From NCBI GenBank assembly GCA_048213135.1, contig PS015434.1, positions 6,153-47,119 on the forward strand: DNA of 40,967 nucleotides. The letters are read 5' to 3'. Every line of letters starts with the position of its first letter. Position 1 is the first letter of the stretch. The notes under the pieces are model-generated. The model worked only from the letters and a program-made list of their open reading frames with translations, searched no databases and was not told where the DNA came from. A program made the translations under genes and the position numbers. Positions 4-39,219 of the stretch are shown piece after piece. The stretch is from Reclinomonas americana ATCC 50394 (Eukaryota).

Positions 4-397
4 TCGCAGACTGTTCTTCTGTCGCACCGGCGACTCATTGTCGACACACGAGAGTGCACTCCAGCACAGATCCTGAATGGTCTCCTGCACTCGAGCAAGT
101 GTCACACACACACAGAGATAGAGACGGACTGCGTCAAGCATGAGAGAGAGAGAGACAGACGAAACTCGTATGGTGAACAGCTCCTCCGCTGTTCCCGCCC
201 GCAAGCGCTGTCCCAGAAACTCGCCGCTCGGCTTCAACATGAACAACTCGTCCCATTCCTCATCGGACAGCTCACCACCCGGCTACCACGCACACATGAG
301 CGCAACAAAGACAACAATGGGAGGAAGCAGAAAAAAAAGGGCGCGCAACTTCAAAGAGCTTCTCGTACAAGGCCACTGACTTTTCTCGACGAATGCC
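4..397 (-). CDS. ARMH3: ARMH3/C10orf76 N-terminal exons (about 350-397, 166-282, 4-84), on the strand opposite to the rest of the gene; start codon not seen
   Basis: Spliced at GT-AG sites these read GIRREKSVALYEKLFE/PGGELSDEEWDELFMLKPSGEFLGQRLRAGTAEELFTIR/ETIQDLCWSALSCVDNESPVRQKNSLR, resembling the ARMH3 N-terminus as I recall it (KEKVVLMYDEIF...FWEELFLMK...PIRVVNALQ). Confidence 0.8.
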
Positions 398-716
398 CTT
401 GGATGCAGAGAGAGGAGGTGTGGGTAATGAGGACGATCCTCCGCCTTGTNNNNNNNNNNNNNNNNNNNNNNNNNNNNNNNNNNNNNNNNNNNNNNNNNNN
501 NNNNNNNNNNNNNNNNNNNNNNNNNNNNNNNNNNNNNNNNNNNNNNNNNNNNNNNNNNNNNNNNNNNNNNNNNNNNNNNNNNNNNNNNNNNNNNNNNNNN
601 NNNNNNNNNNNNNNNNNNNNNNNNNNNNNNNNNNNNNNNNNNNNNNNNNNNNNNNNACGTGGACAACTGCTTCTCCTGTGTCTGTCTGTCTGTGCGTCTC
701 ATGTCCGCGAGGTCAG

Positions 717-3141
717 ACGCTGAGCATTGTGCTCAAGGCCGTCTGTCGACGCAAGTGGCGCAACTTTAGCTTTGATGTGCTGGAACTGGTGTGTGGCTTT
801 GATGGCGCCGATGAGTTTTTTGGCACGCTGCTGCGCAAGTGTCGAGCTGTTCTCGAGTCTATTGGCTTTGGTGTGTCCTTTTATGTGTTTGCACGTCCGT
901 CGGATGCCTGCGTCGTTGTGTTCACACGGTGGTGCAGTCGAGCTGAAGATCGCCGTCATGGAGGTGCTGGTCACGGTGGCCATGGCGCACTCCAATGTCA
1001 ACCTCAATGCGCTGCTCGAGTACTTTGTGTTGCACGATCTCACAGAGCCAATACTAGGGGTGTGTGTTTGTGTGCGTGCCACCTTCTCTTCTCGTCACTG
1101 GCGCTGACGGTTGTGTGCTGCTGACAGCTGCTGTGCGAAGTCAATGACAATCAGCAGGTCGTGCTTGATATTTTCGTGTTTCTCGCCGTGCTGATCAACT
1201 ATCAGCGGCACGAGGCCGCCAACGTATACTTGCGCAAACTCAACGAGCTGAAGAGACCCGAGTACTTTGAGGTGCGTGACCGCTTGTGTGACGGATCGAT
1301 GCCCTTTTGTATTCACGTCGATCACATCAGAGTGTGTGTACCTCGCTGTACGTTCTCCTCTCCACCTGGCATCGAGTGTTTGCCGACTCGTCGCAAGCTC
1401 AGTCGGGCCTCCTCCCCTCGCTGTTCTCCATCTTTTCGGTGGTGGCAGAATCGCTCAACATTCCTCCATTATTCGCGGCCTCCACCAACTCGTCACAGAC
1501 GTTGCGCATGCTTGCATGCACCTGTCATTCTTCATCCTCTCGTCGATCTGTTCAACGCTCTTTGCGCAGATTCTACGTCATTGGCGCCCCCCTGCTGGTG
1601 CTCTTCGAGTTGTGCTGCTCCAACGACGCCTTTCTCACGTTTGTCACCACCGAGATGCCGCGTGTGTGTTTGGCCGTGTACCGCGAACAGTTCACGCAGG
1701 CGGTGGTCCAGGAGGGCGGCCCATCGTCGGCACCACCCTCAACGGCAGCTGCGGGAGAGAGTGCCCCGACTGCCGTGTTTCCGGATGCAGGTTCGTGCAC
1801 TGTTTGTCCTTGTGATTTACGAGTGTGCGTCCAACATCTGCCGACAACAGACTGTTATCTGCCGCCATTCTTGGGCGAGTTTATCATGATCTCCAATGTT
1901 ATTCTTCTCGACAACAAGAGCGAGCGCAATCGCCTCTACTCGAAACTCTGTCTCCTCATCTACCGGTGTCTGTCGGAGAACCTGGCTGCCTGCCGATTCC
2001 TGTTCAGACAACTGTGCATCTGCAGCATCACCACATGCTCGCGAGTTGCGTGTCACACAGTTCAATCGTGGGGTGGAAACAGCTTGGTGGCTCATGTCTC
2101 ACCGAGTACGCACACACCAGGACGGCGAGCGTTTCTACCTCGAGCCGTGGGAATTCTGTGGACGTCCCGTGCAGGCCGTATTACCAGTGTTGGCCGGCTA
2201 CATGCGTAACTTTGCGAAGCGGAACCTGGATGTCGAGATATGGAGGTTTGCCTTCTCTGTGTGTCTCGCCATTCTCCGCGGTGAGCTGACGGAGGAGAGC
2301 AGTGTGTGTACCGACGTTTTCCATCGCCTAGTCTGTTATGCACATGCCAATAAGCACAAGCTGGCGATTGACTGGAAGCTGATGTGGTCGGCGCTGCTGA
2401 GGTGGGTGTCACGCTGAGTCTGCATTGTGTTGCTGGCTGCATGTTGACGCGCAGCTGCACAGCTGCACGCCATTCATCTCCGACGACACAGTCTCGACAC
2501 CGCGTGGAGAACAATTTTTGATGAATGTTGCGCAGGTGGTGGTGCCGCGCGATGTTGTGTCGCCCTTTGACTCACCGAGTCCGATTGCAGTATCTCATGA
2601 CGCTGGAGTTGTGTGTGGTCGGTGGCCAGAAGTTTGTGCCCGACGCCGAGGAGATGGATTTCTTGTTTTTCGAGTTGTTGCGATTGGAGGACGAGGTGCT
2701 TGCCACCATCCACCTGGGTGCGTGTGTGAACCCCGATTGAGTGGCACTGCGAGTTTTTCACGACCTCACGTGCGTGGTACGCATGTGCACAGGGAGGAAA
2801 CTGCGCAGTCGGCTGTGTGAGTTTCGGAATCTGGAGGCTGTGTTTACGCATTTTGGTCCCGTATTACGTGGGCAAGTGTTTCACGAAACCGAAGAGGTCG
2901 GTGTACACTTGTTAAACAACGGTGTGATTCTCTGCACATTCTCATTGTTTGTGTCTGTGCGCAGGCACTCGCGGTGCTCAAGTTGCATGCCGATTCGTTT
3001 ACACCACGAGAGGAAGTAATGGGACTCGTGGACTCGTGGGAGGCCTATCGCCCAGCCGAGGACCTCGCATATTTCGGGCAGCTGTTGGTACACGTCGCAC
3101 GGGAGAACTGGGATGTGCGACAACAAGAGGGCGACAAGTAA
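717..3141 (+). CDS. ARMH3: ARMH3/C10orf76 (DUF1741) armadillo-like helical protein, remaining exons
   Basis: Exon from 717 TLSIVLKAVCRRKWRNFSFDVLELVCGFDGADEFF; later VNLNALLEYFVLH, FLAVLINYQRHEAANVYLRKL, LYSKLCLLIYRCLSEN, KLAIDWKLMWSALL; last exon ALAVLKLHADSF...EGDK with TAA at 3139-3141. Multiple short GT-AG introns. Confidence 0.82.
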
Positions 3142-3307
3142 TTGTAGCAACACAATCTCTCTCACACATATTTCATTACCGGAGGCGGGTGGGGGGGACG
3201 TCCACGCAGTCTACTAAGGGGGCAAACAGAACACATAACATGTGCACGTGCGCGACAGACGCACATGCATACTACGAAGAGGGCTAATTTAGAGGGATGC
3301 GCGTCGC

Positions 3308-6300
3308 TCAACTGTCATCCTCGGCTTCCTCTGCTTCCTGTTCTGCAATAGCTTGCTTGGCCTCGTAGTTGGCTTGTGCTTGTGCCAGCGCATGATGGAA
3401 AAGCGTCTGACTCGCTCCCGGCAGTACCGCACAGAGGCCGCCCAAAAACGCACCCTCGTCTGCAAAAAATCAAATGTCACTTTGTGAGCAAGAAAAACTA
3501 GAGCAGCGAGTGTCGGCACACACACAAATACGCAACGCTCATTGAGCTCCGCAAAGAACATGTGCGCATCGACTTCGTCAAGCGGTGACGTGTACGTGGT
3601 GATGTCGTCAATTTCCTGACCACGCTCATCGACATCCGGATCATCGACACCAAATCGACCCTTGGCTTGAAGCTCGGCGCGCTTCGCCTCGTCAATCTGC
3701 GGTGCAGCAAAATGAGTTGATCGCAGCAGCAACAAGAACAGCTAGCGGCGCGGTATCCACTCACGTCTTGCATGAATCGCTGAATCACGAGCGCATCCTC
3801 CTTCTCCAGGAAAGCGTCGCCAGACTTTACACGCAAGCGCAGCGCAGTTGAGATGGTGGAAGCGGACACACAAAGGGGGAAACGAGCACGCACCTCAGGC
3901 TTCCTTTCGAGTTCATCGTCGAGGTCAATCATGTCGTTCAGGCCGTCATCGTCGTCGTCGCAGGATGGGTTGTTTTCCGCTGTCGTCCCAAACACACACG
4001 TTGTCACAATTCAGCAAGTCGAACAAGCAAGAGAGGCTCCACACATTAAAGCAGACCTTCAACAGCATCCGCCAGTCGTGACAGTGCATCAACCAGCACC
4101 TGCAACACCAGTGCAGCGTTCTCCGTCACCAGTGCCGGCACTCCCGGTTGTTGCATGATCGACAGCAGCGAAATCAGACCGAGGCACGTCATCTTTAGGT
4201 CGTGCGAACTGCCGGTGTTTGAAAAGCACACCAGTGAGTGATTACAATCAGCAGCAGACGGACCAATGTGCGCGACGCACCGAGTCAATTGCGGAATAGC
4301 ATCCATCCATTTGGAGAATGCAGCACCAGTGTGGCCGTGGTGCTCCAGCGACTGCAATGCCAGCGTCGGGTCGTAGTAGAAGCAATCGGCAATCTGCAAC
4401 ACGACCGCGACAGTGAGTCCCACAGGCGAAGGAAACGGCGACAAGTGTGTCACACGCACCACATCGACCAACTGGATGGTGAAGCGCATCTTCTGTGGCG
4501 GCTTGGCCACCAGACGCCTCAACGACATCTCCAGGAACTTGGGTATGCATTCGTCGATCTTGCCTCTGCACACTCGACGAAGTTAGCCATGGAGGCGAAC
4601 ACTTGTACACACACCCCTCCTCCCCCTCTCACTCGAGAGTCACAGCAAGCGCGGCAGGTGTCACGAAGTCTCAGTTCAAAGTTGTCATCAACAAAAAAGA
4701 TTATCAGTGCTTCTTAGAAGGTAAACCATCATAGACTGCGTGCGGCGCTGCAGGACCCAAACAAGAAATCTTCCTCTCCCCCCTCCACCCCATGCAACTC
4801 GCCTGCAGTGATGCAACAGAGCCTCCATCATGATTGCGGCAGCGCGAGGCTCCTTTTCCGACGTATCATTTGTGCTGTCCACGCACTGCACGCAAGTGTC
4901 CCCCCACGGTCAGCCAACAATGTCGACAAGAGTAGACAAGAGTTGCAGACTGAGCGACGAACCAACTCGCACATCTCCATCACCATCGCCAAGTAATTGT
5001 CTTCCGGGGTACCGCGCAAGAACACGTCCACGTCGTGCGACAGGAAGTTCTCAAACACCGGTTCAATCTCTGCGCACCACGCGTGAGAAGAGTGGAGACA
5101 GTGCCCTCTTCTGTGCACTTCACATCTCACCTTGGAAGTAGTCTCGAGCACCTCCAGTGACGAACAGCGCATACAGACGACGCATGAATCCGTACGTCTG
5201 CGGCGAGATCACTTGCGTGACAAACAGGAAACTCGACATGATGCGGCACACTTCGTCCAACGAGTCTGTCAGCAACAAACACAAACGGACGAATGTAAGT
5301 GTCTCGCGCGCGCATGAGAGACGTGGTGTGAGGTATCGTACAACGCACCGAGCTCCGACTCCTCGTCCGCCAACATGAGATTGAAAAAGTGGTACAGATA
5401 CTGTTCCATCTCCAGGTAGATCTCCGGTGACGTCTGCACCGTCTCCAACAGCGTCTGCAGTGTCTTCAGGGTGGCGATGCCGGAGTAAATAATCTCCTGC
5501 GTCGCGTTGCCGTCCTTCATTTCTGCGTGGTAGCCGTAGTACACTTGCAACTGAAAATCACGATCAAGTCAGTCAACAGATGGGGGGGGCGGGATGGGGA
5601 GAACAAGGACACACCAGACGATGCAACAGCTCGGCAGCCAGCGGAGAAATAACTTCGCCAAAGTTGACCACGAGTGCCTCCACTCCCGTCACCAGCTCGT
5701 CACTCTCAAACTCCGACATGAGTTGCAACATCTTCTCCGTCAGCTCCGGCACCAGAGGAGCCAGATGTTCGTTGACTGCTCGACGAAGGAGCGTACATAT
5801 GATGAGCACACGAGTAGTGGGGCGAAAAGGCAATCACACACGTCGCGCCGAAACTCTTATCCTCCTGAATAATCTCACGCATGGTTTGCGCCGCGTACAC
5901 TCGCACCACCAGATCGTTCGAGGTGCACATCGAGTTCCACACACCCTCTGTCAGCTGCAGCAGATTGTTGATGTCATTCCACTCGACCAGTGAAAACTTG
6001 TACACCAGCGCAATCGCCTACCATGGGAAACAGTCAGCTCTCTGCCTCCCTCTCTCTCAACGAGCGAACAAGCATATCACAACGCAACTCGCGCTCGCAG
6101 ATACACCACATCCGACGACAACTCCGGGTACACGTGGGTCATCAAAAAGCCCTCCATGTCGTGCTTGTTGCTCGTCGACATCAACAGCACGCCCAACTCT
6201 TCCACTGCGTACAGCGCCGCCTCCTTGTACAGCGTGTTTCGTTCAGCAGGCGGCTGCGCATTGTACCTGCGGAAATGAACAGGCGGTGAGCCAACACGAC

Positions 6301-8286
6301 ACGGTGAGACACAAAAAAGGAACAAGAACGCAACGAGTCCAAGAACTGCGAGATGAAATCCAACAGCGGGCGCATTGTCGACTTCTTTGGTCGATTGGCC
6401 AACATCGACTCCAGCACCGCACAAGCGGTTTTGCGCACAGACCGCACCTCATTAGCGACATCTGTGTGCACAGCACACGATTTGGTGAGATCGGGGAGGA
6501 ACAAGCACTGAGGCACCAGCACCACAAACCATATTCAATGTGCAAGTAATCGTCGGGGGCCTCACGCCACATGGCCAGTGCCTCGTCGGTGAGCAACACC
6601 AACGGGAGGACGTACTCTGTCATGAATGTCAGGGCGTGTGGCCGGATAATATCCCACGCGTCAGCAAGAGTGATGCTGGGGGAGGGGAAGGAGGCGACGA
6701 TCATGAGTGATGCGCCCTCTCCACATAATGGGGAGAAATGAGAATAGCTACTCACGCGCACTCGAAAAAGGTGCATGCGTGCACCACAATCGGGTCCGAC
6801 ACCGAGCTCGGGTTGTCTCTCCGCAGCTGCAAGATGTGCAAGAATGCCTCCGTGCACGGCGCCGAGCACGACTCCAAGAACCGGGCTGAAAAGAGATTGA
6901 TTCGTACATCCTTGCTCATTGTTGTCATGCGACCATGTCTGTGCGGCACACAAACGCGCAATGATGAGCGATTGACGTCCATTGACACGATACACGTAAC
7001 GTACACACAGACCTGATAAAGTACTGCGACAATGTGTGTGCCGCCGCCCTCTTCATCGTCCATATGATGTGCTCGCTGCACACGTCTGGGTGCGTGTTGC
7101 CCGGGAATGTCGGCGGCGTGAGATACAACACACGGACCAGCAACTCGACCACGGCATTCATAATCTCGAATCTCTCCAAAAAGACCGGCGGCAATTCGCA
7201 CTGGTGGTGGTGGCGCGAGGTTGAGTATCAGTCACCGCGGCAACGATGACAAAGGCATGAGGCACTCACCGTGGTCATGTACTGCACAATCTTCAAGCAC
7301 AGCCACGTGTATGTGGCGCGCGCGGCCACCACCGGCGGCAGGCTCGGTGCGTACTCTGCGCATGTCAACGACTGCGTGAGCTGCCGGAGAAACACTTCCG
7401 CAGCACAGCCACCAACAAACCTTTTCCGTTCAGTTCCGCCTCCAGCTCCGACACGGTGGTCTGCAGGAACCCGCCAAACACCTCAATAGACTCGGCGCAA
7501 TAGGCCACCAGTGGGTGACGCTCATCCTTGCGCTTCTTTCTACAGATTCAAGGGGAAGCAAAGTGAGTGTATGCGGGGGAGGAAGATGGAGTAAAAGAGG
7601 GAGACGACCCACCTGTACACATAGCAGAACTGCTTCGCCAAGAGCAGACCCGCATGCACCTCCTCCGGATCGCTGCTCGCCAACAAGCGCGAGATATCGG
7701 CGAGGAGCGTGGGAATGCCGCTCTTCTTCTGCACCACTTCCACACAGTACAACAGCTGATTCCGCACAATCGGCAGCGCCACGACAGTCGCCGCCACAAT
7801 GTGCTGCAAGAAGTAGTGCTTGTCCTCGTCGTTCAGTGGCGCGTACAACTCCGGAACGCCAGTCCATCTGTGGCCACAGCACAGAGAGAGAGAGGCAGTT
7901 GAGCAAGAGGGAGATGAGGTGGGACACGTGAGAGGGTGAGAGTGGGGAGAGAGCGGAAGAGAGTACGGATCACATTTGAGCTCTTTCACGCACCTGAAGC
8001 GGATGAGGTTCTTCAGTTGCACCGAGGCCGCTTGCCGCACATGCGGCTCATACTGCGCGTCCAGTGACACCTCAAAGAGCACTTGAATGAAGCCAGCCGA
8101 GTTGAACAAGTGCTACCAACACACAAACACAAACAAAAGCGTGTGTCTGCACATGCGCACATGCCCATGCCCACACACCAGACGCTCACTCACCTGCTCC
8201 ACATACTCCGCCGCGCGCTGTCTCTCCGCCGCATCCGCCAGCGCCGAGTACGACAAGTGCAAAAGATGGGCAAGCTCCGCGCTCAT
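3308..8286 (-). CDS. IPO7: Importin-7/8 (RanBP7/SAD2-like) importin-beta family protein, about 20 introns
   Basis: MSAELAHLLHLSYS...ERQRAAEYVEQ; IBN_N motif VRQAASVQLKNLIRF; WTMKRAAAHTLSQYFIR; HVYPELSSDVVYLRAR; LMSEFESDELV; CRGKIDECIPKFL; DCFYYDPTLAL; acidic tail YTSPLDEVD; TGA at 3308-3310. Confidence 0.9.
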
Positions 8287-8388
8287 TCTCACAAAGTGAC
8301 GCAAAGTTGGCAAAGGCCGGCAAAGTTCCGCGGAAAATTCCATGGCCGCAGCGCCAAATTTCGTGTACTTCTTCTTGGCGGGCCCGCA
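8287..8388. promoter_or_regulatory. Probable compact bidirectional promoter between importin-7 and the coiled-coil gene
   Basis: Only 102 bp between divergent ATGs (8286 on -, 8389 on +). Contains four CAAAG at roughly 10-bp spacing, CGCGGAAAA at 8329 and GCGCCAAA at 8351. Confidence 0.5.
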
Positions 8389-11381: not shown

Positions 11382-11479
11382 AGAAAGAATACTGTTGGTT
11401 TTAAAAAGAAAGAGAGAAAATAACCTACAACAACTACAATAGCAGCAAGCACAGTGGCGGGCGGAAACACGCGTGTGTG

Positions 11480-14501: not shown

Positions 14502-14535
<34 letters not shown>

Positions 14536-23022: not shown

Positions 23023-23070
23023 AAGTATGGAAGCAACAACAATAAGCGTATTACATTCACTCTCCGTCGG

Positions 23071-24771
23071 TCAGTCGCCTCTCAGTGCTCTGTACCGCAG
23101 CAGCGCACTGTGTGGGTCCAACACAATCTCACACAACGGCGACACCTCGTGCTGTGCGGCCTCGGTGCTCTTGCTGGCATGCACAAACGTCAACGATCGC
23201 GCAGTCACCCGCACCGCTGGCAGACCCACGCTGGCGCGACTGTCGCCACCCAACGCCGCCGCGCTCGACGACGACGAACGGACGAGCACCGGGGGTGATG
23301 CAGGAATGCAGTCGCTGGGGTGTCCATTTGAGGTGAGCAGAATGCGCCGTGTGACCTGCCTGAGCATCGGCGCACCAAGCGAGTGCTTCAGCACGTGATT
23401 CCACATGGAGCCGGCGGTGGCGGGCGTGACAGCCGCCACCGCCTGCCGCGTGGTGGCCTGCACCATCTCCGGTGCAAGGCGCGGCAGGCTCGTCACCGCG
23501 CCAAACACAATGAAGCGGCGCGTGGCCAGCAGATCGGCCACCGCGCGAGTCATGGCGGCATTGCGCGCCAAGTGTTGCCGTTGCTGCGAGTGGGAGAGAG
23601 AGAGTGCCGTCAGCACTCGCAGGGTGAAGAGAAAGGAGGAAATGGAAGGCCTTCTTCACGCAACACTGTCGGCACGGTGCACCCAAAAGTGCGATGTCAG
23701 AGAATCAATCACGACCAGCTGCACGGCACCGTCGTCCACACACGCTGACGACGCCGCCGCCGTTGCCTCGGCCGATCGCTTGCCCGTGGCTGCAACAGCC
23801 GCCGCCGCCGCCGCCGCAGCAGCGGCAGCGGCAGCAGCGACCGCAGACTCGACCGACTGCCGCNNNNNNNNNNNNNNNNNNNNNNNNNNNNNNNNNNNNN
23901 NAGCGAAATCAACGCCGCAATGGCCTCGGTGAATCCGTGACACGTGACGACTGAGACGCGCGCCAACGCCGCCGCCAGCACCGACTCATACGCCGCCTTC
24001 TCCATCAACTCGTCCTCCTCCGCCTCCTCGCGTGACGCCAACAGCGCCGCATTCAGCTTCGCCTCGACCACATCAATGAGACGGAACGGCGAAAACTTGA
24101 GATCCAAGTCGACAAACACCACATTCATCTCCAGGCCGCCAACATGCACGTCGCCAATGCGCTGTGGCAACACCGCCGTGGCACACACATCCAACAGCAC
24201 CTCGCTCTTGCCCGACTGCCCCGGGCCATACACCTCGACAAAGTCACCAGCGCGAGAATCCTGTTCATCATCATCTCAGTGTGCTGTCTCTCTTGCTCAC
24301 ACATATGCTCACGCGCGTGTGTAACTTGCAACAGTGAGCGCGCTGCCTCGTCCTCCTCTGTCTCTCCTCCTTCTGCTCTCGCGAGGACCCACGAGTANNN
24401 NNNNNNNNNNNNNNNNNNNNNNNNNNNNNNNNNNNNNNNNNNNNNNNNNNNNNNNNNNNNNNNNNNNNNNNNNNNNNNNNNNNNNNNNNNNNNNNNNNNN
24501 NNNNNNNNNNNNNNNNNNNNNNNNNNNNNNNNNNNNNNNNNNNNNNNNNNNNNNNNNNNNNNNNNNNNNNNNNNNNNNNNNNNNNNNNNNNNNNNNNNNN
24601 NNNNNNNNNNNNNNNNNNNNNNNNNNNNNNNNNNNNNNNNNNNNNNNNNNNNNNNNNNNNNNNNNNNNNNNNNNNNNNNNNCCGCTCACGCACTCGTCGT
24701 CGATGCACACGACGCAGCAGGTCCAACGCTGTCTCGTCGGGCGCAAGAAAGCGCAACACTCGCTCGTCCAT
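23071..24771 (-). CDS. XRCC2: RAD51 paralogue XRCC2 (spans two gaps)
   Basis: MDERVLRFLAPDETALDLLRRV; Walker A EVYGPGQSGKSEVL; AVLPQRIGDVHVGGLEMNVVFVDLDLKFSPFRL; Walker B LVVIDSLTSHFWVHR; C-terminal LRQVTRRILL. Confidence 0.85.
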
Positions 24772-26293: not shown

Positions 26294-26432
26294 GGCAAGA
26301 AGCACTAAGAAGCACATGACAGTAAAGTACCATAATCATCTGTGCCCGGTCCACGTCATGCGCTGAGACTGCAACGCACCGAGAAGCATTGGAATGCCGA
26401 TCGACAAGTAGGACAACTGCACTGCACGCACA

Positions 26433-27430
26433 ATGCCTGCGCGATGGCAAGTGCAAGTGGAGATTGTTGCGTTTCTCTCTTTGTTGTGCGCGCGTGTCTT
26501 CCGCAACTGAGCGCGCGCACGCACACGGGCGCAGGTTGAGGCGCGTGAGCTCAAAGGCCGCGACCGCTCAGGCACAAGGTTTGCACTTTCTTGTCTCTCA
26601 CTCACTCACTTTCACTCACTCTCTTACACACGCGCGCGGCACTCCAGCGACCCTGTCATCAAAGTCAAAGTCGGCGACAAGTCGCAGCGTACAAAGACCG
26701 TGAAGAAAGTGCGTGCATGCACAAACTCCGCCACTCACTCTCTGCCTCTCACTCACACACACACACGTGTGCGTGCGTGCATAGGTCAACTCTGCTGTGT
26801 ATGACCACCTCATGTTCTTTGAGATTGACTCGGACTTGCGTGAGACGCGATGTTTGATTCAGGTTGAGTGTTGCATGCGTGCATTCAGCTGTTTGCATTC
26901 TTCCTCAACAAGTCCTTACCGATTTGGTGACACACAGTGCTTTGATGCCAACACCATCACTCGTGACGTGCTCATTGGTCAGTTTGAGGTGTCGCTGGAC
27001 TACATCTATGGCGAGCCCAATCATGAAGTGTGGCGACGATGGGTGCGTGTTGCATGATTCGCCGCTCTTCCCTCCTTCCGTTGTCATTACTCCCTGGTCA
27101 TTTGCAGTCTCCCTCTCCTGCTCTACTTCTTCTCCTTCTTCTTCATCTTCTTCTCCTTGCTCTCCCGTCGCCCAGTCATCTGCGATCGCCTTCTTGTTCT
27201 TGTTCTTCTTATTCTTCTCCTCCGCGTTTCTCTCTCTCTCTCTCTCCAACCCGTTCTCTTGCACATTCCCTCCTTCCGTTGTCATCCTCTTTCTCAGTCC
27301 CTAGTCATCTGCAGGCTTCCTCTCCTGCCCTCCTGCTCTGCTTCTTCTCCTTCTTGTTCTCCTTGCTCTTCCGTCGCCCGGTCTTCCGCGATCGCCTTCT
27401 TGTTCTTCGTTTTCTTCTCCTCCTCCGCGT

Positions 27431-27465
<35 letters not shown>

Positions 27466-30400
27466 CACATTCCCTCCTTCCGTTGTCATCCTCTCTCTTT
27501 ACTCCCTGGTCATCTGCAATCTCCCTCTCCTGCCCTCCTGCTCTACTTTGTCTTCTTCTTCTTCTCCTTGCTCTCCCGTCGCTTGTTCTTGGTTTTCTTC
27601 TCCTCCTCCGCGTGCTCTCTCTCTTGCACATTCCTTCCTTCCGTTGTCATCCTCTCTTTACTCCCTAGTCTTCTTTTTCTCCTCCGCGTGCTTTCTCACC
27701 CATGACTCCCGTGTTATCACCTTCTTTTATGATCTCCCGCATCCCTTTGCCCTTCCTCTCACTGCCTCCCACCCAGGTGGTGCTGCTGGACCCCAAGAAA
27801 CACCAATCCGAAGTGCAGGGCTTTGTCAAGCTGTCGGTCATCGTCATGGGACCTGGGGACACCACCGGTCAGTACACAACAAGTCTCCGTGCTCACTCAC
27901 GCTCCCGTGTTTTGACGTCTCGCGCCCTCCCCGCGCAGCACCGCATCCGGACCTCGACGAGGAAGAGGAGGGCGGGGCGATTGATTCGCTGCAGTCGATG
28001 GTGCTGGCGCCGCCCGATTTTCAACGGCAGGGCGCCGAGTTGCTGGTGCGCGTGTACCGAGCCGAGAATTTGCCAAAGATGGACTCTTGTTGCGTCTGCC
28101 ATGCCACCCTCTCCCTCCTCCTTCCGTTCAATTCCTCACCCCATGCGTAAATCTAGTCGGCAAGATCGATGGATATGTGGCCGTCAATTTCGCCGGCAAC
28201 CCCACTCTCAAGACCGCCATCAAGAAGAACGAGTACAACCCGGTGTGGAACCAGGAGCTCGTGCTGCCCGTGTGGCTGCCGAACTTGAGCGACAAGATCG
28301 AGATTCTCATTCGCGACTGGGATCGCATGAACAAGGACGACACCATCTCGCGGCAGTACTTCACCTTTAGCGACGTGCAGCTGGAGGGGTTCACACCGCG
28401 CTGGATCAACCTGTATGGCGCGCCGCTTAACCCGTCCTTCCGCGACAAGGCAGTGCGCTGCATGCGCTCTGGCAAGGCCGAGCCCACCGAGTACCACGGC
28501 CGTGTGCTGCTGGCCATGACGCACCGTGCGTCGGATAATCCCCTGGTAACTTCCATCTCTTTCTCTCTCTTCGATCTCCTCCACCTCCTCATCAACTCTC
28601 TTTCCTTTGATGCAGTTCGGCGGACCAAACAACATTGCTCCGTGCGAACTGCCGCGCACCCGTGAGTACGTGCTGCGACTGGATCTGTACCAGGGCACAG
28701 ATTTTCCGGCCAATCGCAGTCAGTCGGTGCGCGTCGGCGTCACCTGGGGACAGCACGTGCTGAAGGGCAAGGCCGTCGGCATTCGCAACGGATGTGCGTT
28801 GTGTCATTTGTGTACTCTCTTTCATGACACACTCTCTTACTTCCGGCCATCTGCCGCAGCGTACCCGTGGTACGAGTCATTGCAGGAGATTCGCGCCACA
28901 TTCCCGCACACCATTGACCATGTGCCAGATATTGTTGCGTGACTGACCGTTGCACTTCATCACCTCTGCGTTCCCCTGACCGCGCACGCGAATGGAACAG
29001 ATCCTGTACTTTTCCATCAAAGGCTTTGGCACCACGTCGCGTATCGGTTACTTGCGCTACAGGGCTGCGTTGCGTCAAACTTGCCGCGTTTGCGTCTCTC
29101 TGCATTCTCTTTGTTTCTCATCTCGTGGCAGCGATGTGGTGGGGTTCGACAAGCCGCCAGAGTGGCACTGTGTGACGGCGAATCCCTTGGCGGCCGCGTA
29201 CGAAAAAGATCGCATCCCCGGATTTGCTCTCATCCGGTCCGTGTGCTTGTCTCTCTCGCGTTCGTCCCTTTCGTCATATACTCACGTCTGCGTGCGTTCG
29301 TAGCCTGGCGTTTGGACCGGCCGAAAAGGCGCCTGTTCCCCGACCGCCCATTGCACCGCCGAGGTTCGGTCGTTTCCAGCTGCGCGCGCACGTTTACCAG
29401 GCTCGTGACCTACCGGCCGCGGACGACACGGGCACCAGCGATCCGTACTGCCGCGTAATCTTTGGCTCCAAGGTGAGGGGCCTGCACATCCTTTCGACTC
29501 GGACCACGCTTGTTTTCTCATCATGATGCAGAGTGCGGAAACGGGTGTTCGTTTCGCCACCAACTACCCTCTGTGGTACGAGTCGCTCAGTCTGGATGTG
29601 GAGATTCCCATTGACATGAACTACGCGCCGCGGATTGTGCTGCAGGTGCGCTGTTGGAACGACTCGGTCTCGTGTCTCCTCCCATTTTCCTGCTCATTTC
29701 GCGCGCACTGCAGGTGTGGGACCGCGACAGCACCCTGGACCCTGACGACATGATTGGGCGCTGTGACATTCCGGCCAACACCGCCGGCAAAGGGTGGCCC
29801 GGCGATCCCAAGTGGTACGAGTTGTACATGAATGACCCGAACGACACCATGGGTGGCGTTCTTGCGTCGTTCCAGTTGATTCCACGCGAGGAGGCGGCTC
29901 GCATGCCACCGCCCGGCTCTATCAAGCCGCGCACACAGCCGTGCGTCTTTGAGATCTCGGCCATTGGCCTGCGCAGTCTGCTGCCGGCCGCCGACGGGAG
30001 CGGCAGCAAGTCGCGGGCCAAGAACCCGCGCATCGAGGTCAGCGGTCTCATGCCTTTAATGTCTCACTCCTCCTCTGACTCGTCGCGGCACAGTTCGATT
30101 GCGGAGACTCGAATCGTGTGGTGTCGTCGGCACGTTGCTCGCAACCGACTCCCGAGAATCCCAACCATCTGGAGGTGTGTGTGTGTGTGTATGTCAGAGC
30201 ATGGTTGTCTGCGTGCCTGTGCATGAATCACCAATGCTCGTGTCGGGCAGGCCGTCTACCTCGAGTGCGAGTTGCCTCTGAACGCGCTCTTTGCACCGGC
30301 CATCAATGTCCGTGTGTTTGACGTCGGCGGTCTTCTCGGCGGCGACCGACTCGTCGGTGCCTCGTCCATCTCGGTGGCACCATACATGCCGTGGTCGAAT

Positions 30401-32869
30401 CTCGATATTCCCAAGGTCAGTTCTTCCCTTGTTAGTTCGCCTCCAATGCTTTTCCCGCAGACCCTTCATTCTCCCATCACAGGAGAGCCTGCCGCCGCCC
30501 TTTGATGGTGATATTCCCGGCGCCGCCGGTCTGCCCGGATTTGATGACGACGTGGTGTCGGCAGTGCACCAGATCGAGATCGTGGATCCCATTCCCGAGG
30601 ATCTGCGCGCCTGCAACGAGGTTGTTGGCGATGAAATGCATTTCATCACCGCGGGCGAGCCGAAGCGCACGCTGCCGGAGGTGGACGACACGCACTTGGG
30701 TGGTTTCGAGAGCACGGCAGCCGACGCACTGGCCGGTCGCAAGACTGTAAAGGTGGAGCTGGAGCACACCTTCAAGCAGCTGCCCTTTGACGAGTATCGC
30801 CTCTATCGGTTGGTGGATTGTGCTGGGCTAATTCGTTTCGCTGTATTACCGCACTGACTCGCGATGCGTGCACCGTCCAGCGGCACCACTCGGCAGCAGG
30901 GAGGCTACTTTACGAAACTATGGGCCACCATGGAGAAGAGAGGCGTGCAGAACCCCAAGCACAACAGGTTGCATTCATGTCTGCGTGCTTCTCATCGCTG
31001 CATCATCATCATCTCATGTCGGCGTGTGGCATCGCAGCGGCAAGTTCAAGGGCCGTTTCCGTGTCATTCCGGCGGAGCAGTTGCGCGGTTTGCGTGATCG
31101 CGCCGAAAGCACTGTGTCTGCTGCTGCTCCGGTCGTCCCATCGACCACAATCACCCCGTTTGACATTTTCGACGATCCACGACCCGGCAGTGGCCTTCCG
31201 TCGTTCACTGCTGGTGCCGCTGCGGCAGCTCTGGCCGCCGTCAGTGCGCCTCGCGTGCCGCCCGTGCGAGCGCCCTCTGGCAGCTTCACCGCCGCAGCTG
31301 TGGCAACTGTTCCGCCACCGGCGCCTGTGCCGGCACCGGCTCCGACAGAGACCGTCGAGTTGATCACTAGCCGTTTCGTCCTCCACTCCGCGCCCACGCG
31401 TGTTGCCTCTTGGTGTGAGCTCACCACGGTGTTGCGCAGAGGAGCTTCGTCGCATGTACACGTCACGTGATTTTGTGGTTCGCGTGCATGTGGTGCGCGG
31501 TCGACAGCTCGTACCAAAGGACAGCAACGGCAAGAGCGATCCGTACCTGGTGTTCCGCACGGGCAGCGATCGCCGAGCCAGCGCCAAGTTCATTTCGTGC
31601 GAGCCCGACGTCATCAAGGCGACTCTGGCGCCCGACTTTTGGACCAGCCAGGAGCTGCGTGCGACCATTCCAGGTGACTCGCTGCACATCGAGTGCTACG
31701 ATTGGGACGCTGTCGGCGACCACGACTTGATCGGCGCAACTATTGTCGACCTGGAAAATCGTCTCTTCAGCGAGGAGTGGCAGGCGTTGGAGGCCAAGCC
31801 GTTGGAGCAGCGCACATTGTGGGTGCCGACGTCCAGCTTCCCGCAAGGTCGCCTGGAGCTTGCCATCGACATTCTCACGCCGGAACAGGCGGCAGCGCAG
31901 CCGTTTGTTCGTCTGCACAAGCCGGAGGTTCGCAAGCACGAGCTGCGCGTGATTGTGTGGAACACGGTTTGTCGCATGCGAAAGCAGTGCCACTGCCACT
32001 GGATCTGATAATGTGTTGCACCACAGGAGGACGTTGTCTTCAAGGACGCGAACATGAGTGATCAAATTCTGCGTGCAACCGCACTGTGGAACAACGAGAA
32101 GCTGAAGACGGACACGAACTGGCGCTCGATGGATGGTACGGGCAGGGCGTGTCCTCTGCGCTGATGTGCGCAAGGTTCATTGATGTTGCTGCACAGGCAA
32201 GGGCTTCTTCAACTGGCGCTGGGTCTTCAAGGACGTGGAGATCCCGTGCAAGAATCCGCGCTTGCGAGTGCAGATCTACGATCGTGACATTTTCAAGCCG
32301 AACGATTCGATTGCCGAGTCTGTTCTCAACCTGCGGCCGCTGTTCCGCAAGGTCTACAACCAGCGAGCGCGGCAGGAGATCCCACGACAGTGGATCTCCA
32401 TGACTGTTGCGCATTTCGTCTGCCTGCTGTGCTTGTTTGCCTCGTGCTCACACTTCCATGTCGTCACACACAGCACCCCAACTTCCAGGGCGTGCAGGGC
32501 AAGGTGGAGCTGACGGTGGAGTTGCTGACGGCCGACGAGGCAATGCGCTTCCCCGGTGAGTGGCTGCAATATGATCTCAGTATTTGCTCGGCATGTGCGC
32601 TCATCTCTTGTCAACAGCCGGGCAAGGTCGCGATCCGCCCAACGAGAACCCGCATCTCGACGACCCGCCTCGGCCACCAACCAGTTTTGCGCCGTGGCGA
32701 GTGGACAAGTACGCACAGAATTTCTGGATGAAGTACAAGGTGTGTGTTGTTTATCTTGGCGTTGTTCTCTGTTGCACATCGTTCTCAACGACTTCCACAG
32801 AAACGCTTGATTCTTATCGGAATCGCCGTCCTCGCCCTGTTCATCTGCCTCCTCTTCCTGTTCATCTAA
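26433..32869 (+). CDS. Ferlin-family multi-C2 tail-anchored protein, paralogue A (25 introns by my reconstruction; no DysF seen)
   Basis: MPARWQVQVEI/VEARELKGRDRSGTSDPV; VYRAENLPKMDSFGKIDGYV...NPVWNQEL; FTPRWINLYGAP...EYHGRVLL; LRAHVYQARDLPAADDTGTSDPY; RGRQLVPKDSNGKSDPY...IGATIVDLENR; ELRVIVWNT...TDTNWRSMDGKGFFNWRWVF; GKVELTVELLT...NENPHLDDPPRP; TM LILIGIAVLALFICLLFLFI then TAA. Confidence 0.92.
27069..27690. repeat. Pyrimidine-rich minisatellite (about 4 units of 160-205 bp) in the 734-nt ferlin-A intron 27043-27776
   Basis: Core (CTCTTGCACAT)TCCYTCCTTCCGTTGTCAT...TCCCTRGTC recurs near 27069, 27256, 27461 and 27621; units contain CTCCTCCGCGT and (CT)n of variable length. Confidence 0.85.
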
Positions 32870-32953
32870 CCGGTGATCAGAAGTAGAATAAAACCGCATA
32901 CACTTTTTTGGTCGCACGCACAAGCACACACACAGACATGAGTCTCTCTCTCT

Positions 32954-34570
32954 CTACAGGAGCACAAAAATGAGAACAATGGCCAAGATGATGATGCCGG
33001 CAATGATGAGCTTTGTCTGTACATGGTCATGGTACGCCGTGAGCAACATGCACAACCTCGAAAGAACACGCTGTAAGGAGAGTCAACAAACCTTGTACTT
33101 GAGCCACCTGCAGCAGACAAGCAGAGGAAAGAGACAAGTTAGCACATGAAAAGATGCGGGAAAGAAGCGTGGCACTGCACTGGCGACGCAACCATGTCTG
33201 CGCGTACTTGTCCACTCGCCACGGAGCAAAACTGGTTGCCGGTCGTGGCGGGTCGTCGAGGTGCTGTGGTGTGATGCAAAAAATGCACAATGTGAGCGAC
33301 AATCGGGGAATGCAATCGGCAAGCACGAGATGGCGACGTACAGGGTTCTCGTTCGGAGCCTTGCGCGCCTCGCCGGCCGGATAGCGACGTGCCTCGTCTG
33401 CAAAGCGACGCAGAGTTGAGCATACATCACACACGCCACACACACGTAGCACGCATATGAAAATCAAGTACCGTCGGTCAACAGCTCCACTGTGAGTTCG
33501 ACCTTGCCTTGCACACCGGTGAAATTAGGGTGCTGGCAGCGCTCGGTAAGTCAATCGACGCAATCCTGCGTCACTCGAAATGAAAAACACACACATACCG
33601 TCATGGAGATGAACTGGCGCGGAATCTCCTGTCGTGCACGTTGATTGTACACCTGCAAGCAAGTCACCGTCAGCATGCCAATAAACAGGAGAAATGACGA
33701 CGCTGCATGTGCAACATACCCGGCGGAAGAGCGGTCTCAGGTTGAGCATGGCCTCGGCGATGCTGTCGTTCGGCTTGAAGATATCGCGATCGTAAATCTG
33801 AAACAGAGAACAGTGAGTATCTGGGGGAGAGAGAGTGCAAAGAAAAAATATCACTGGTGGTGGCACACACCTGAATGCGGACGCGGGGATTCGCATTGGG
33901 GATCTCCACGTTCTTGAACACCCAGCGCCAGTTGAAGAATCCCTTGCCTGGAGATACAAAGAATGAGTGACAGGGACCAGAAAAAAAGGAATGCCGGGGC
34001 GACGCGCACCATCCATGGAACGCCAGTTGGTGTCGGTGTCGTGCCTATCGTTGTTCCACATGGAGGTGCCGACCAGCTTGATGTCACTCATTTCCTGTGT
34101 GGGGCACATGCAGTGGATGAGTGAGCTGCTGTGGGCATCAACAGTTTGCACCATTTAGTAAGGCGACGCAACAGCATCCTTGAAGACGACATCGGACTGG
34201 TGACACGAACAGCAGGCATAGCATATAAGTAAATCATGCGCATGTGGGAGCCACATCATTCACACTCGTCGCGTACCGTGTTCCACACGATGATGCGCAG
34301 TTCGTGCATGCGGACCTCTGGCTTGTGCAACTGCTGGAACGGAATGTGCGCTGCCTGTTCCACCGTGTAAATGTCGACGGCCAACTCCAGGCGACCTTGC
34401 GGGAACTTGGACTCGGTTGTCCACAGCGTGCGGTGCTCCAGAGGCTTCGGCTCCAGGCCCTGCCAGTAGGGCGAGAAGATGCGGTTCTCCAAGTCGATTG
34501 TTGTCGTGCCAATGAGCTCGTCCGCTCCCACCGTGTCCCGGTCGTAAACATCAATGTACAGGTTATCGCC

Positions 34571-34607
<37 letters not shown>

Positions 34608-37600
34608 GACAACACACACGGGTACAACGGAGTGCGCGATCTACAACGCACCGGGAAGCGTAGCGCGCAGCTCGCGACTCGTCCAAAAGTCCGGAGCCAG
34701 AGTCTGCTCAATGGTTTCGGCCTTGCATGTGACAAACTTCTCTCCGGGAGTCTTCGCCGCACCGCAGCGGAACACGAGGTAGGGATCGCTCTTGCCGGTG
34801 CGGTCTTTCGGCACAAGCTGGCGACCACGCACAACGTGCACGCGAACAACGTATTCGCGCGTTTGATACAACGCTTGCAGGTCCTCTGCGAACGGCAAGT
34901 GCCGTGAGGATACGCGGCATGCAGTGACCATTGACAAACACAAGTGAAAAACACACCAGTGGTCATCAGCGTAATTGGTTCAGTCGACTCCTCTGGCATG
35001 CCGTCGACCTGCAGGTGCACGCCCGATGGGCCCTCGTTTTCCAAGTCGGCATCAAACGCTTGCGAAGGGCTGCTCGGCTCCGGCGGTCGAATATCCGCGA
35101 GAGAAGTCGAGCGAACAGTGCCCAGATGTGGTGGTAGTTGACGGATGCGCTCCACTGGCACCACACGGAAGTGTCCCTGTGCGAGGATCACACGAGGGTG
35201 AGTGCATGGAGAGGCGATGAGGGGCAACAGCAAAGATGCTAGATGTACATACCTTGAAACGACCGCTGCAGGTGGACGCGAGCATCGAAAGTGAGAAGCG
35301 AAAAGCACTGATGAAAGAAACACACTTCCCGGGTGGTACTCACCAGATGCGCTTGGCGCTCTCAGGATCGCGATCGACCTTCTTGCTCCACATCTTGGTG
35401 AAGAAACCACCCGACTGGCGGGTGCTTCCACGGTACAGCTTGAATGCGTCGAACGGCAACTCGGGGAAATCGTGCTCCAGCTCGTGCTTCACCAGCGCAC
35501 GACCGGAGAGCACATCGGCACCATTGCCTTCGAAACCGCCGAGCAGCTGATCGTCGACCTCAGGGATGGTGCGCTCGGGTTCGCCGCGCGTGCGGAACTT
35601 GAACTCGTGTGCAAACTGGATGTGTGTGACGACGAGTCAGAACATGTCCCGCGGCAAGCACACGACCATGACAAGCACGCGCCAACCTCCTCGTTACAGG
35701 TGCGGAGGTCGTCAGGAATGGGATCGACAATCTCCTGCACCTCACCCACTCGGATCATGTCATCGTCGAAGCCAGGCAGATCACGAGCACCGGGAATGGG
35801 CGCATCAAAGAACTCGACAATGTTGTCCTTTGGAATCTCCATGTTTGACCACGGCATGTAGGGCGCAATCGGAATGGATGTCGAGCCAAGCAGACGCCGT
35901 CTGCCAAACATGCCCGCATCGTGGACACGCACATTGACAGCCGGAGTATACAGCGGATTCAGTGGCAATTCGCATTCCAGATACACGACCTGCGCGCGGC
36001 CATGGTCAAACATGGAGTCAAACAAAAAGCGAAAACAAGAGCACTCTATCTCTCACCTCGAGGTGGTTGGGGTTCTCGGGACTCGGTGTGTTGCACGAGC
36101 GCGTCTGCATCATGGGGAAGACAGAGCTGCCGGCGTCAAACTGCACACAACAACGACCACAGAGTCAGGGCCACGAGCACGCAGTCGCTTGGTGCTAGCT
36201 GGGAGACTCACGTCGATGCGCGTGGTATTCGGGCGCGATTTGGTGCCATTCTCCTCGCCAGCAGGAATCAGCTCACGCAGACCGACGGCCTGAATCTCAA
36301 AGATGCACGGTCGCATTTGCGGTTTGATGGTGGGCGGCAGCGGAACACGAGCGGCCTCCTCGGCCGGGATTAGCTGGAACGAGGCCAGCACCTCACCCTC
36401 GGTGACCGAGTTGTCGTCCATGTACAGCTTGTACCATTGCGGATCACCGGGCCATCGCTTGCCCAGCTTCTCGGGTGCCACCTCGGCACGACCCAGCAGA
36501 TCGTCGGGATCCAGACCGGGGTCCACATCGTACACCTGCAAAACAGCGAAGACTTTCAGGGAAGGTGCGAGAGAAAAATACTCCACTGCCGCTGTGACGA
36601 AACTTGCAATACCACACGCGGCGCAAAGTTGAAATCGGTGGGGATTTCGACATTGAATGCGAGCGTCTCGTACCACAGCGGGAAGTTGGTCACGTAGCGT
36701 GGCGTGGTTTTCTTGGACTGCATCGCGGTTGTTGTCAGTGAAAGCACGCACTATGGGAGAATCAAGAACACGTGCGCGCACCTGACTGCCGAATGTCACT
36801 TTGCAGTACGGATCACTCGTGCCGGATTCGTCGCCAGCCGGCAAGTTGCGTGCCTGGTAAATGTGGGCACGCAGCTGATACCGACCAAGACGAGGGGGCG
36901 CAATGGGCGGCCGCGGAATCGGCGCCTGATCGGCAACACCAAAGTCAAGGCTGTGCAGATGGGGCGGTGAGTTAGCGCACAGAGCAACTCAACAAAGCAA
37001 AATGAATAAACAGCTCACCGGAAGAGGCAGAAACCAGGTGGTTGTTCCTTGTCGTAGGCGGCCGACATTTTGTTGGCAACAATCGGTTGCCACTGCGCAA
37101 TGTGGCCCCATCCAAACACCTCTCTGCCGCAGCGTACCGCAAAGCACACATGAGCGCAACAATAAGCTTCACGAGGCGACAGCCAGCCAGCAACTCAACT
37201 CTGCCGTGTATCGCAGATAACCAATCTCTGACTTGGCGCCAAAACCCTTGATGTAGAAGCGGATAATCTGCACCGAAAAAGTGTGAGAGAGAGTCACCGC
37301 GAGGGCACCACAACACCGACGAGTCCTGCGCAACAATGTCGGGAATAGAGGAGCGATCGGCCGGATACTCGACACGCATGTCGGGGATCTGCTCGTACCA
37401 CGTGTAGGCGCCGTTGCGCACCGACACCGCCTTGCTCATGAACGAGTAGGGGCCGATCGAGATCTGCGCCTGCACGGCCTGACTGCGGTTGGCCGGGAAA
37501 TCGGCGCCCTGATACAAGTCGAAGCGCAAAATGTACTGCTTGGTCGGTGGCAAGGCACACGGATCGAGTCTGCTCGGCGCGTTGGAAGTCTATCGCATCC

Positions 37601-39219
37601 AGCAATCAGTCAAGTGTGCGAGATGACTGACTGCAGCATTCAATCATCTGCGACGACTGCACCTGTGGGTTGTCCTTGGCCGCCACCTTCATGGCCAGCA
37701 AGATGCGACCGTGGTACTCAGTGGGCTCGGCCTTGCCCTTGCGCAGCAGATTGTGGGCCTTGTCACGGAACGACGGTTCCAGCGGCACGCCGTACAGGTT
37801 CACCCAGCGCGGGTTCAGACCGCCCTCCAACTGCACATCGGAGAAGCGGAAAAACATGCGAGCAATGGTCTCGTCCTTGGTGCCGCGATCCCAATCCTGC
37901 GGGGCGACAGAATGTCAGACGAGTGGAGCGTGGAGAGAGAGCACATTTGAAGACACAAACAGAATACTCACTCGAACAATGACTTCGATCTTGTCGCTGA
38001 GGTTCGGCAGCCACACCTGGAATTGCAGCTCGTTATTCCACAGTGGAGTCAGTGTGCTCTTCATGATTTCGGTCCGGCGCTCGGCGTTGCCGGCGGTGAC
38101 CACAGCCACATACGGATCGCACTTGCCGACTGCGCACGGATGATATTCAAAAAAACTTCCGAGTGGACCAGGGCATGGTGGCACAACGCAACAAGTGTCC
38201 ATCTTCGGCATGTCTTCACCGCGGTACACGCGCACGTACAGCTCGGCACCCTGTCGCTGCATACCGGGCGGCATGAGTACGTACTGCTGCAGTGATTGGA
38301 GGGAGCCTTCCTCCTCCGCATCGACTTCCGGTGCCGGTTCTGCACGCAACGCACAATCGCACACGTAAGAAGCAATGAAAAGGGAATGGAAGCAGGGAGG
38401 TTGGTTGGATTACCGATGGTGTCACCGGGTCCAGCGACGGTGATGGAGACACGGACGTAGCCCTGAATCTCATTGCCGTGCTTCTTGGTCTCCATAATCG
38501 CCACCCACGTGCGCCAAATCTGATGGTTCGGCGCCGTGTACACGTAGCTGAGATCGATTTCGAACTGGCCTGCAAACGGCAAGCAACACAGCAGTCAGCA
38601 TCGGCAAGAGAGAGAGAGAGAGAGAGAGAGGAAGGAAGACGAAAAGAAAGAGACGACGGAGGANNNNNNNNNNNNNNNNNNNNNNNNNNNNNNNNNNNNN
38701 NNNNNNNNNNNNNNNNNNNNNNNNNNNNNNNNNNNNNNNNNNNNNNNNNNNNNNNNNNNNNNNNNNNNNNNNNNNNNNNNNNNNNNNNNNNNNNNNNNNN
38801 NNNNNNNNNNNNNNNNNNNNNNNNNNNNNNNNNNNNNNNNNNNNNNNNNNNNNNNNNNNNNNNNNNNNNNNNNNNNNNNNNNNNNNNNNCAAACCCACCG
38901 ATGAGCTCATTGCGCGTAAAGGTGTTGGCGTCGAACACACGAATCACACACGGCGTCTCCTCCAGTCCCGTATCAATCTGGAAAAACATGAGATGGTCCC
39001 ACACGACATTGGCCGACTTCTTTGTGCCTTTGGTCTTCTGCGTCTGCTTGCCCACAGTCACACTGGCCACGGGATCCGAAGTGCCGCTCCGATCGCGACC
39101 TTTCAACTCCCGAGCCTCCAGCTATCATGCATGATCATTCAGCAATCGGGGCTCATGTCACCACAGAAGATCAAGACAGAAAGAGAACTCACCAGCTCAA
39201 CCTGCACCTGGTACGGCAT
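32954..39219 (-). CDS. Ferlin-family multi-C2 tail-anchored protein, paralogue B (28 introns by my reconstruction; one intron contains a gap)
   Basis: MPYQVQVEL/LEARELKGRDRSGTSDPV; VYRGEDMPKMDTFGKCDPYV; LNPRWVNLYGVP...EYHGRILL; LRAHIYQARNLPAGDESGTSDPY; RGRQLVPKDRTGKSDPY...IGTTTIDLENR; ELRIIVWNT; TM LIIAGIIILAIVLIFVLL then TAG at 32954-32956. Collinear with paralogue A throughout. Confidence 0.92.
34574..34602. repeat. (AG)n microsatellite forming the polypyrimidine tract of a ferlin-B intron
   Basis: About 14 AG units; on the minus strand (CT)n lies just upstream of the ATCAG acceptor. Confidence 0.85.

Follow-up and report, generated by a model that had tools for sequence, protein, structure and literature searches.

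Many introns in a 40,967-base stretch of DNA from Reclinomonas americana ATCC 50394 (contig PS015434.1; the whole stretch is hereafter called the window) appear to begin with GTT(G/T)(C/A)G, that is, with a G at intron position +6 and not at the ordinary +5. The question raised by this locus is whether such sites are true 5' splice sites (donors) and, if so, how they are recognised. The window is intron-dense eukaryotic DNA of about 55% G+C outside its ten N gaps. An earlier note on it had listed 20 sites of this class and proposed that the organism routinely reads them by “shifted or bulged” base-pairing with U1 small nuclear RNA (snRNA), or else that it has a variant U1 or U6 snRNA. All 20 positions read GTT[GT][CA]G on the strand given for each (15 GTTGCG, 2 GTTGAG and 3 GTTTCG). 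As judged from the sequence, the class is confirmed as a real, abundant and coherent signal; by homology and reading frame, class sites mark exon-intron junctions to the base, and class donors open about a quarter of the introns in the window. Our favoured explanation, in which we place about even confidence, is that the major spliceosome removes these as true GT-AG introns and that GUU(G/U)(C/A)G(U) is a second, frequent type of donor, which would be read in a U1 register shifted by one base (+1).

The evidence base comprises 41 kb with four or five genes, providing about ten independent ferlin donors and about six others, and all boundaries were placed by homology, reading frame and coding potential. 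The host genes of the 13 best-placed class donors are two paralogues, A and B, which by their sequence are members of the ferlin family. Both open reading frames (ORFs) are complete from ATG to stop and encode a hydrophobic C-terminal anchor, the two proteins are 59% identical, and C2 domains were matched on the window exons; the best homologues (P0001 and P0003) carry five C2 domains, FerI and Ferlin_C, the latter two having been seen in the homologues. Gene models were rebuilt independently of those in the earlier note, from a MAFFT nucleotide alignment of the paralogues and a spliced protein-to-DNA alignment, followed by curation. In the MAFFT alignment of A with the reverse complement of B, exon blocks of approximately 70% identity, differing mostly at third codon positions, are set apart by unalignable stretches of 56-85 bases. 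The spliced aligner, which scores donors and acceptors as GT/GC..AG only and is blind to the rest of the donor, recovered most ferlin introns when guided by one foreign ferlin, and the remaining places were curated. All 53 ferlin introns (25 in A and 28 in B, of which B 38898-38570 covers an N gap) are GT..[CT]AG, and 13 of them belong to the class; the total equals that of the earlier note, and the class members lie exactly at its coordinates.

The exact position of the class boundaries can be read from the comparison of the paralogues. Three class introns (A 26863, B 34172 and B 33192) are lacking in the other paralogue, and their exact removal from GT to AG gives a product of equal length. 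Four others (A 26466, 31373 and 32406; B 36603) share their codon position and phase with an ordinary donor of the paralogue (GTGAGT, GTGTGT, GTATGT and GTGCGC, respectively), and the remaining six form three A/B pairs with a class donor in both copies. Furthermore, the GT reading was scored against a reading with GTT left in the exon and the intron starting three bases later, using 35 foreign ferlins of at least 900 amino acids. The GT reading was preferred at 11 of the 13 sites, typically by 24-33 to 0-6 and at the weakest by 11 to 3 and 14 to 2; the boundary at 34172 is fixed by the intron-less paralogue A.

These comparisons bear directly on the suspicion that the boundaries are misplaced, the true donors being GC-AG donors three nucleotides downstream or the additional T being an artefact of modelling or sequencing. 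A shift of three nucleotides always preserves the frame, the spliced aligner did take a GC donor at 28937 under the guidance of one foreign ferlin, and the foreign ferlins are undecided at 28934 and 34172. On the other hand, the same reading cannot apply to GTTGAG and GTTTCG, whose introns would then have to open with GA and TC; it adds a residue relative to the intron-less paralogue at 26863, 34172 and 33192 and relative to the paralogue with an ordinary donor at four sites, the foreign ferlins disfavour it at 11 of the 13 sites, and at 31373 it runs into a stop. A sequencing error would not correlate with the base at exon position -1, and the ORFs are intact over more than 1300 codons. GC-AG introns were therefore rejected on the foreign-ferlin, paralogue and stop comparisons, and we regard misplacement in any form as very improbable.

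The class also stands out from chance occurrences of GTT. Thirteen of the 19 ferlin donors with T at +3 have [GT][CA]G at +4 to +6; among the remaining GTT sites of the window, 77 of 943 do (odds ratio 24, p = 3e-10). The heptamer GTTGCGT occurs 15 times in the window, counting both strands, and 12 of these occurrences lie at listed donors. In addition, we applied a blind gene finder relying on codon usage and knowing only GT, [CT]AG and intron length, with the ferlins, an importin-like gene and the gene at 1-1372 as the sense set and their antisense strands as decoys. It recovered 45 of the 53 ferlin introns exactly and took class donors at 17 of 78 sense introns versus none of 50 decoy introns (p = 1e-4); because the ferlins served to train its coding model, the test is independent of donor sequence though not of the ferlin genes. 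The class frequency is thus 13/53 in curated and 17/78 in blind models, values that may not hold genome-wide.

Within the 13 ferlin class donors, G at +6 is invariant and T follows at +7 in 11, resembling the T at +6 found in 23 of the 34 ferlin donors without T at +3. The latter follow GT[G/A/C][C/A/T]GT, with G at +5 in 30 and G at -1 in 29, and the ordinary donors are GC-rich (GTGCGT, GTGAGT, GTGTGT). Over all 53 donors the base at +3 is A in 9, C in 4, G in 21 and T in 19. Six of the +3T donors fall outside the class: GTTTGC (26579), GTTGGT (30809), GTTTGT (31967 and 33091) and GTTGGC (35686) have the normal spacing with G at +5, in 5 of 53 donors, and G at -1 in all five; the remaining one is GTTGCAT after cag (30968, GTTGCA). 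Class introns share the length range of the other introns as well as their branch-like motifs CT[GC]A[CT], located 11-35 nucleotides from the 3' end. As a separate observation, the textbook donor GTAAGT occurs three times on both strands of the window and is used by none of the 53 ferlin donors.

The feature which best separates the two donor types lies in the exon. G at -1 is present in only 2 of 13 class donors (26863 and 33192, the same two that the earlier note had named) and in 35 of the 40 other ferlin donors (p = 3.5e-6); in the importin-like gene it is found in 0 of 3 class donors versus 11 of 15 others. Where a shared intron changes donor type between the paralogues, the -1 base changes with it: in all four pairs of a class and an ordinary intron, G at -1 stands in the ordinary copy and never in the class copy, and in two of them the change at -1 is synonymous (ACT/ACG and CAA/CAG). 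Written from -1, the ordinary G/GUGCGU (a slash marking the boundary here and below) differs from the class heptamer /GUUGCGU, written from +1, at one position. Base pairs were counted on the assumption of a standard U1 5' end, AUACUUACCUG (as given in Table 2 of PMC4856993); all 21 class sites then form more pairs in the shifted than in the canonical register, while 39 of the 40 other ferlin donors pair better in the canonical one.

According to the explanation favoured here, the class would be the ordinary signal read with an offset of one base, with intron G+1 lying opposite U1 where exon G-1 normally sits. U+3 would take the place of U+2, and G+6 and U+7 those of G+5 and U+6, giving pairs of G+1 with C9, U+3 with A7, G+6 with C4 and U+7 with A3, whereas cleavage would still occur directly before GU. 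Since C9 would already be occupied by G+1, selection for exon G-1 should vanish, which matches the observed loss. We infer that the class donors are read by U1 with a standard 5' end, in the shifted rather than the bulged register, because a bulge should still profit from G at -1. Of the two registers which the earlier note had left side by side as a routine mode, the shifted one is thereby favoured over the bulged one. To describe the class as the ordinary consensus plus a T, as that note does, is equivalent to saying that G+1 stands in for G-1. Extending the scheme in the excerpted text of a preprint on Entamoeba and its relatives (bioRxiv 10.1101/2022.06.08.495308), the UGCGU pentamer facing the U6 ACAGA box would be displaced by one base from the cleavage site, so that the catalytic centre would have to tolerate one extra nucleotide after GU.

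Several points weigh against this explanation. The junctions are drawn from homology, frame and coding potential, and the pair counts depend on the assumed U1 5' end. The shifted helix would be weak, with approximately four Watson-Crick pairs plus a wobble and two internal mismatches. Position +4 of the class is G or T and never A or C, while the ordinary +3 has A in 9 and C in 4 of 34 donors; the two signals are therefore not simply one signal slid by a base. Sites 28934 (9 to 13) and 34172 (12 to 13) are not decided by the foreign ferlins, A and B are paralogues, which reduces the 13 sites to about ten independent donors, and the models outside the ferlins depend on a coding score for which the ferlins were the training set.

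Among the other ways of reading such donors, the one closest to ours retains the pairing frame and changes the reader: a second U1, or U1 together with U6, whose variant 5' end is complementary to GUUGCGU, for example with an additional A opposite U+3 and without a register shift. It would account equally well for the sharpness of the class, as seen in the GTTGCGT heptamers, and co-evolved U1 5' ends are described in the excerpted preprint text for Entamoeba (ACAAAC with GUUUGU) and Mastigamoeba (ACGUAC with GUGCGC), Physarum being said there to have standard and modified U1 variants (bioRxiv 10.1101/2022.06.08.495308). Nothing in the window speaks for it, as an Rfam scan matched no RNA genes, and hence no snRNA gene, in the window. 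It also needs an extra assumption for the lost G at -1, a loss that the shifted register gives directly, and a single reader for both types would make it easier for a donor to change type in place by few substitutions; we judge the second-U1 reading unlikely. Slightly more doubtful is its extension to a two-channel major spliceosome, in which about three quarters of the introns would use standard U1/U6 and about one quarter a dedicated second U1, perhaps also U6, complementary to GUUGCGU; introns could then move between channels through a one-base change and the loss of exon G-1. If, instead, U1 paired canonically at +1 and +2, bulged U+3 (or U+2) and resumed pairing from +4 to +7, the wording “ordinary consensus plus one T” would fit, and the bulge at +3 (or +2) is a register validated in human cells (Figure 1C legend of PMC4856993). 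However, a bulge costs stability, and the pairing of G at -1 with U1 C9 should be kept or strengthened; as an indirect test, the proportion of G at -1 in the class is close to unselected composition and far from that in the other donors, and G is lost from the class copy in all four paralogous pairs, which leaves the bulge improbable, a shade more so than two channels.

The same exon position bears on the idea that donor choice is relaxed and largely protein-driven, with +3 unconstrained; U6, or proteins such as U1C and LUC7, would then recognise GU and a G-U further downstream at flexible spacing, without a defined U1 register. The acceptance of all four bases at +3, the existence of +3T donors with normal spacing and the shortness of the predicted U1 helices in every class are in its favour. 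Nevertheless, the +3T donors with G at +5 and the class donors behave in opposite ways at -1 (G in 5/5 versus 2/13), which points to exon-side pairing having been traded for something specific, and one alternative spacing only is seen; of the readings that leave the boundaries in place, we hold this one for the least probable. Three further candidates were rejected. U12-type introns have the donor /RTATCCTT and a branch site like TCCTTAAC; the donors here are GTTGCGT and similar, and the branch-like motifs are those of the other introns. A UU..GG reading with cleavage one base later requires the following exon to start with G, and among the 7 ferlin A class introns only 1 is followed by such an exon. 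An origin from introners or repeats was discarded as well, class introns having nothing in common beyond +7 except 11 identical bases in B 34172 and B 33192.

Outside the ferlins, the seven class sites proposed in the earlier note fared unequally: those at 3536, 6088, 6334, 349 and 165 were found by the blind finder, the one at 23664 is only plausible, the finder having taken the donor 23729 instead, and the plus-strand site at 2045 was not confirmed. An IBN_N domain was matched on an upstream exon of the importin-like gene; a Pfam search with both flanks of 23664 and with importin exons gave no match. The names “XRCC2” and “ARMH3” therefore remain labels of the earlier note. Coordinates and observations on individual sites, including one candidate additional to that list, are collected in Table 1.

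Regarding the ferlin genes themselves, a first homologous-protein search with one ferlin exon and one importin exon gave no match, and relatives of a ferlin exon in an exhaustive HMMER search had at most 57% identity over most of the query (70% over one 37-residue stretch), with named matches in Gefionella, Anaeramoeba, Mantamonas and Diphylleia. Nine metagenome contigs (L001-L009), found with a single-exon query, encode distant ferlin relatives with 27-31% identity to one exon of A. Paralogues A and B have 18 intron positions in common, 7 are found in A only and 10 in B only, a difference which at 59% protein identity points to frequent intron gain or loss in the lineage. The B-only intron 35616-35686 on the minus strand has an ambiguous donor, GAG/GTTGGCGCG at 35686 or GGC/GCGTGC at 35680; the former gives the same length as intron-less A and the latter two extra residues. 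The sole long intron of A (27043-27776, plus strand, 734 bases), which has no counterpart in B at that position, is full of CT-rich tandem repeats, which in more than one frame would encode SLSLSL-like runs. The convergent stops of A and B are only 84 bases apart, which implies very short or overlapping 3' untranslated regions.

Table 1. Ferlin genes and donors of the GTT(G/T)(C/A)G class in the window. Lower-case letters are the last exon bases and the slash is the exon-intron boundary; “foreign” gives the outcome of the comparison with foreign ferlins.
Feature	Position	Strand	Donor	Observations
Ferlin paralogue A	26433..32869	+		26 exons, 25 GT-AG introns, 1364 amino acids, C-terminal membrane anchor; ATG 26433, stop 32867-32869
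Ferlin paralogue B	32954..39219	-		29 exons, 28 GT-AG introns, 1327 amino acids, convergent with A; ATG 39219, stop 32956-32954
A intron 1	26466..26472	+	att/GTTGCGT	B has ordinary ctg/GTGAGT at same codon position (39192); foreign 28 to 0 for GT
A intron 4	26863..26869	+	cag/GTTGAGT	Intron absent in B; CLIQCFDANT versus continuous CVIRVFDANT, equal length; foreign 25 to 3 for GT
A intron 7	28089..28095	+	ctt/GTTGCGT	Class also in B at same position (38192); foreign 28 to 2 for GT
A intron 10	28934..28940	+	att/GTTGCGT	Class also in B (37334); foreign 9 to 13; GC donor 3 nucleotides downstream possible
A intron 11	29069..29075	+	tgc/GTTGCGT	B has GTTGAGT at same position (37199); foreign 28 to 1 for GT
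A intron 20	31373..31379	+	gcc/GTTTCGT	B has ctg/GTGTGT at same position (34956); reading 3 nucleotides later gives in-frame stop
A intron 23	32406..32412	+	act/GTTGCGC	B has acg/GTATGT at same position (33598), synonymous ACT/ACG at -1; foreign 24 to 2 for GT
B intron 4	38186..38192	-	ctt/GTTGCGT	A partner 28089; foreign 28 to 3 for GT
B intron 7	37328..37334	-	att/GTTGCGC	A partner 28934; foreign 24 to 6 for GT
B intron 8	37193..37199	-	aga/GTTGAGT	A partner 29069; foreign 25 to 2 for GT
B intron 11	36597..36603	-	caa/GTTTCGT	A has cag/GTGCGC at same position (29646), synonymous CAA/CAG at -1; foreign 33 to 0 for GT
B intron 20	34166..34172	-	gct/GTTGCGT	Intron absent in A; FKDAEMSD versus continuous FKDANMSD, equal length; foreign 12 to 13
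B intron 27	33186..33192	-	atg/GTTGCGT	Intron absent in A; YAQTWWLKYK versus continuous YAQNFWMKYK, equal length; foreign 11 to 3 for GT
Importin-like gene, 77-nucleotide intron ending 3460	3530..3536	-	agc/GTTGCGT	High coding score, matching frames on both sides; blind finder
Importin-like gene, 71-nucleotide intron ending 6018	6082..6088	-	cga/GTTGCGT	Coding score; blind finder
Importin-like gene, 68-nucleotide intron ending 6267	6328..6334	-	ctc/GTTGCGT	Coding score; blind finder
67-nucleotide intron ending 283	343..349	-	gaa/GTTGCGC	Coding score; blind finder
81-nucleotide intron ending 85	159..165	-	cga/GTTTCGT	Coding score; blind finder
Probable class donor, 81-nucleotide intron ending 23584, “XRCC2” of the earlier note	23658..23664	-	agt/GTTGCGT	Open frames, positive coding score on both sides
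Candidate class donor, left-edge gene, 89-nucleotide intron 764-676, not listed in the earlier note	758..764	-	GTTGCGC (aaa/GTTGCGCCA)	Blind finder only
Donor of the earlier note, not confirmed	2045..2051	+	GTTGCGT	Upstream coding score weak, 9.5 bits over 50 codons; no plus-strand gene predicted

Shifted (+1) register 5' splice sites of mammals were reportedly described by Roca and Krainer in 2009 (NSMB), and those of the bulge +3/+2 register are said to have been described by Roca et al. in 2012 (Genes Dev). To our knowledge, noncanonical U1 registers are known only as rare mammalian exceptions, studied one minigene at a time. Our literature searches on GUUGCGU-type motifs together with splicing yielded nothing relevant, although cross-species counts of such donors in the 2009 paper of Roca and Krainer or in the supplements of the Entamoeba preprint may bear on novelty; those on atypical donors with U1 snRNA returned only this preprint, and those on the shifted register human and tunicate splicing only. 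Recognition of this kind is known as a rare exception; we could not find it described for roughly one intron in four, linked to the base at -1 and with class and ordinary donors able to replace each other at the same intron.

If the favoured explanation is true, the shifted register can be a mainstream and evolutionarily stable way of marking introns, and the lineage would offer hundreds to thousands of natural cases for studying the U1-to-U6 handover when both helices are offset from the point of cleavage. A further consequence would be errors in gene prediction, as splice models trained on GTRNGT would miss or misplace a quarter of the donors in the lineage. Between paralogous introns, donor type and the exon base at -1 change together, which is a clean case of compensatory evolution in a splicing signal. 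Should two U1 channels exist instead, this would be a natural, genome-wide dual 5' splice-site code.

The closest known counterpart is the mammalian shifted register, with which the class would have in common cleavage at GU, G+1 paired with U1 C9 and not C8, G at +6 and not +5, and no need for G at -1. A test oligonucleotide in Table 2 of PMC4856993, ACA/GUCAAGUAUA, has the architecture of /GUUGCGU here. Both the shifted and the bulge +3/+2 registers were validated in human cells, where, in the sections of that article drawn upon, the validated noncanonical registers as a whole amount to 1.5% of 201,541 5' splice sites (PMC4856993); in contrast to this rarity, the class comprises 13/53 curated and about 17/78 blind introns. 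The core of the class is a GC-rich GCGU or GAGU, as opposed to the AAGU of mammalian shifted sites, and the register is deduced here from sequence and not from suppressor U1. With the bulge +3/+2 sites the class shares a consensus with one extra intronic nucleotide after GU; unlike that register, which keeps the pairing of G at -1, it has lost the preference for this base. GC-AG and U12-type introns are likewise minority classes in ordinary genes, but the class differs from them in starting with GT and in having no U12 donor motif. Finally, as far as the excerpted preprint text goes (bioRxiv 10.1101/2022.06.08.495308), Archamoebae provide a precedent for a change in the U1 pairing region and, as in Entamoeba with GUUUGU(U) and U1 AACAAAC, tolerate or prefer U at +3 as the class does, and the ordinary GUGCG(C/U) donors of the window are also those of Mastigamoeba, Thecamonas and Mamiellales. 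The Archamoebae genomes treated there have one dominant donor type with G at +5, whereas in the window two spacings coexist in the same genes.

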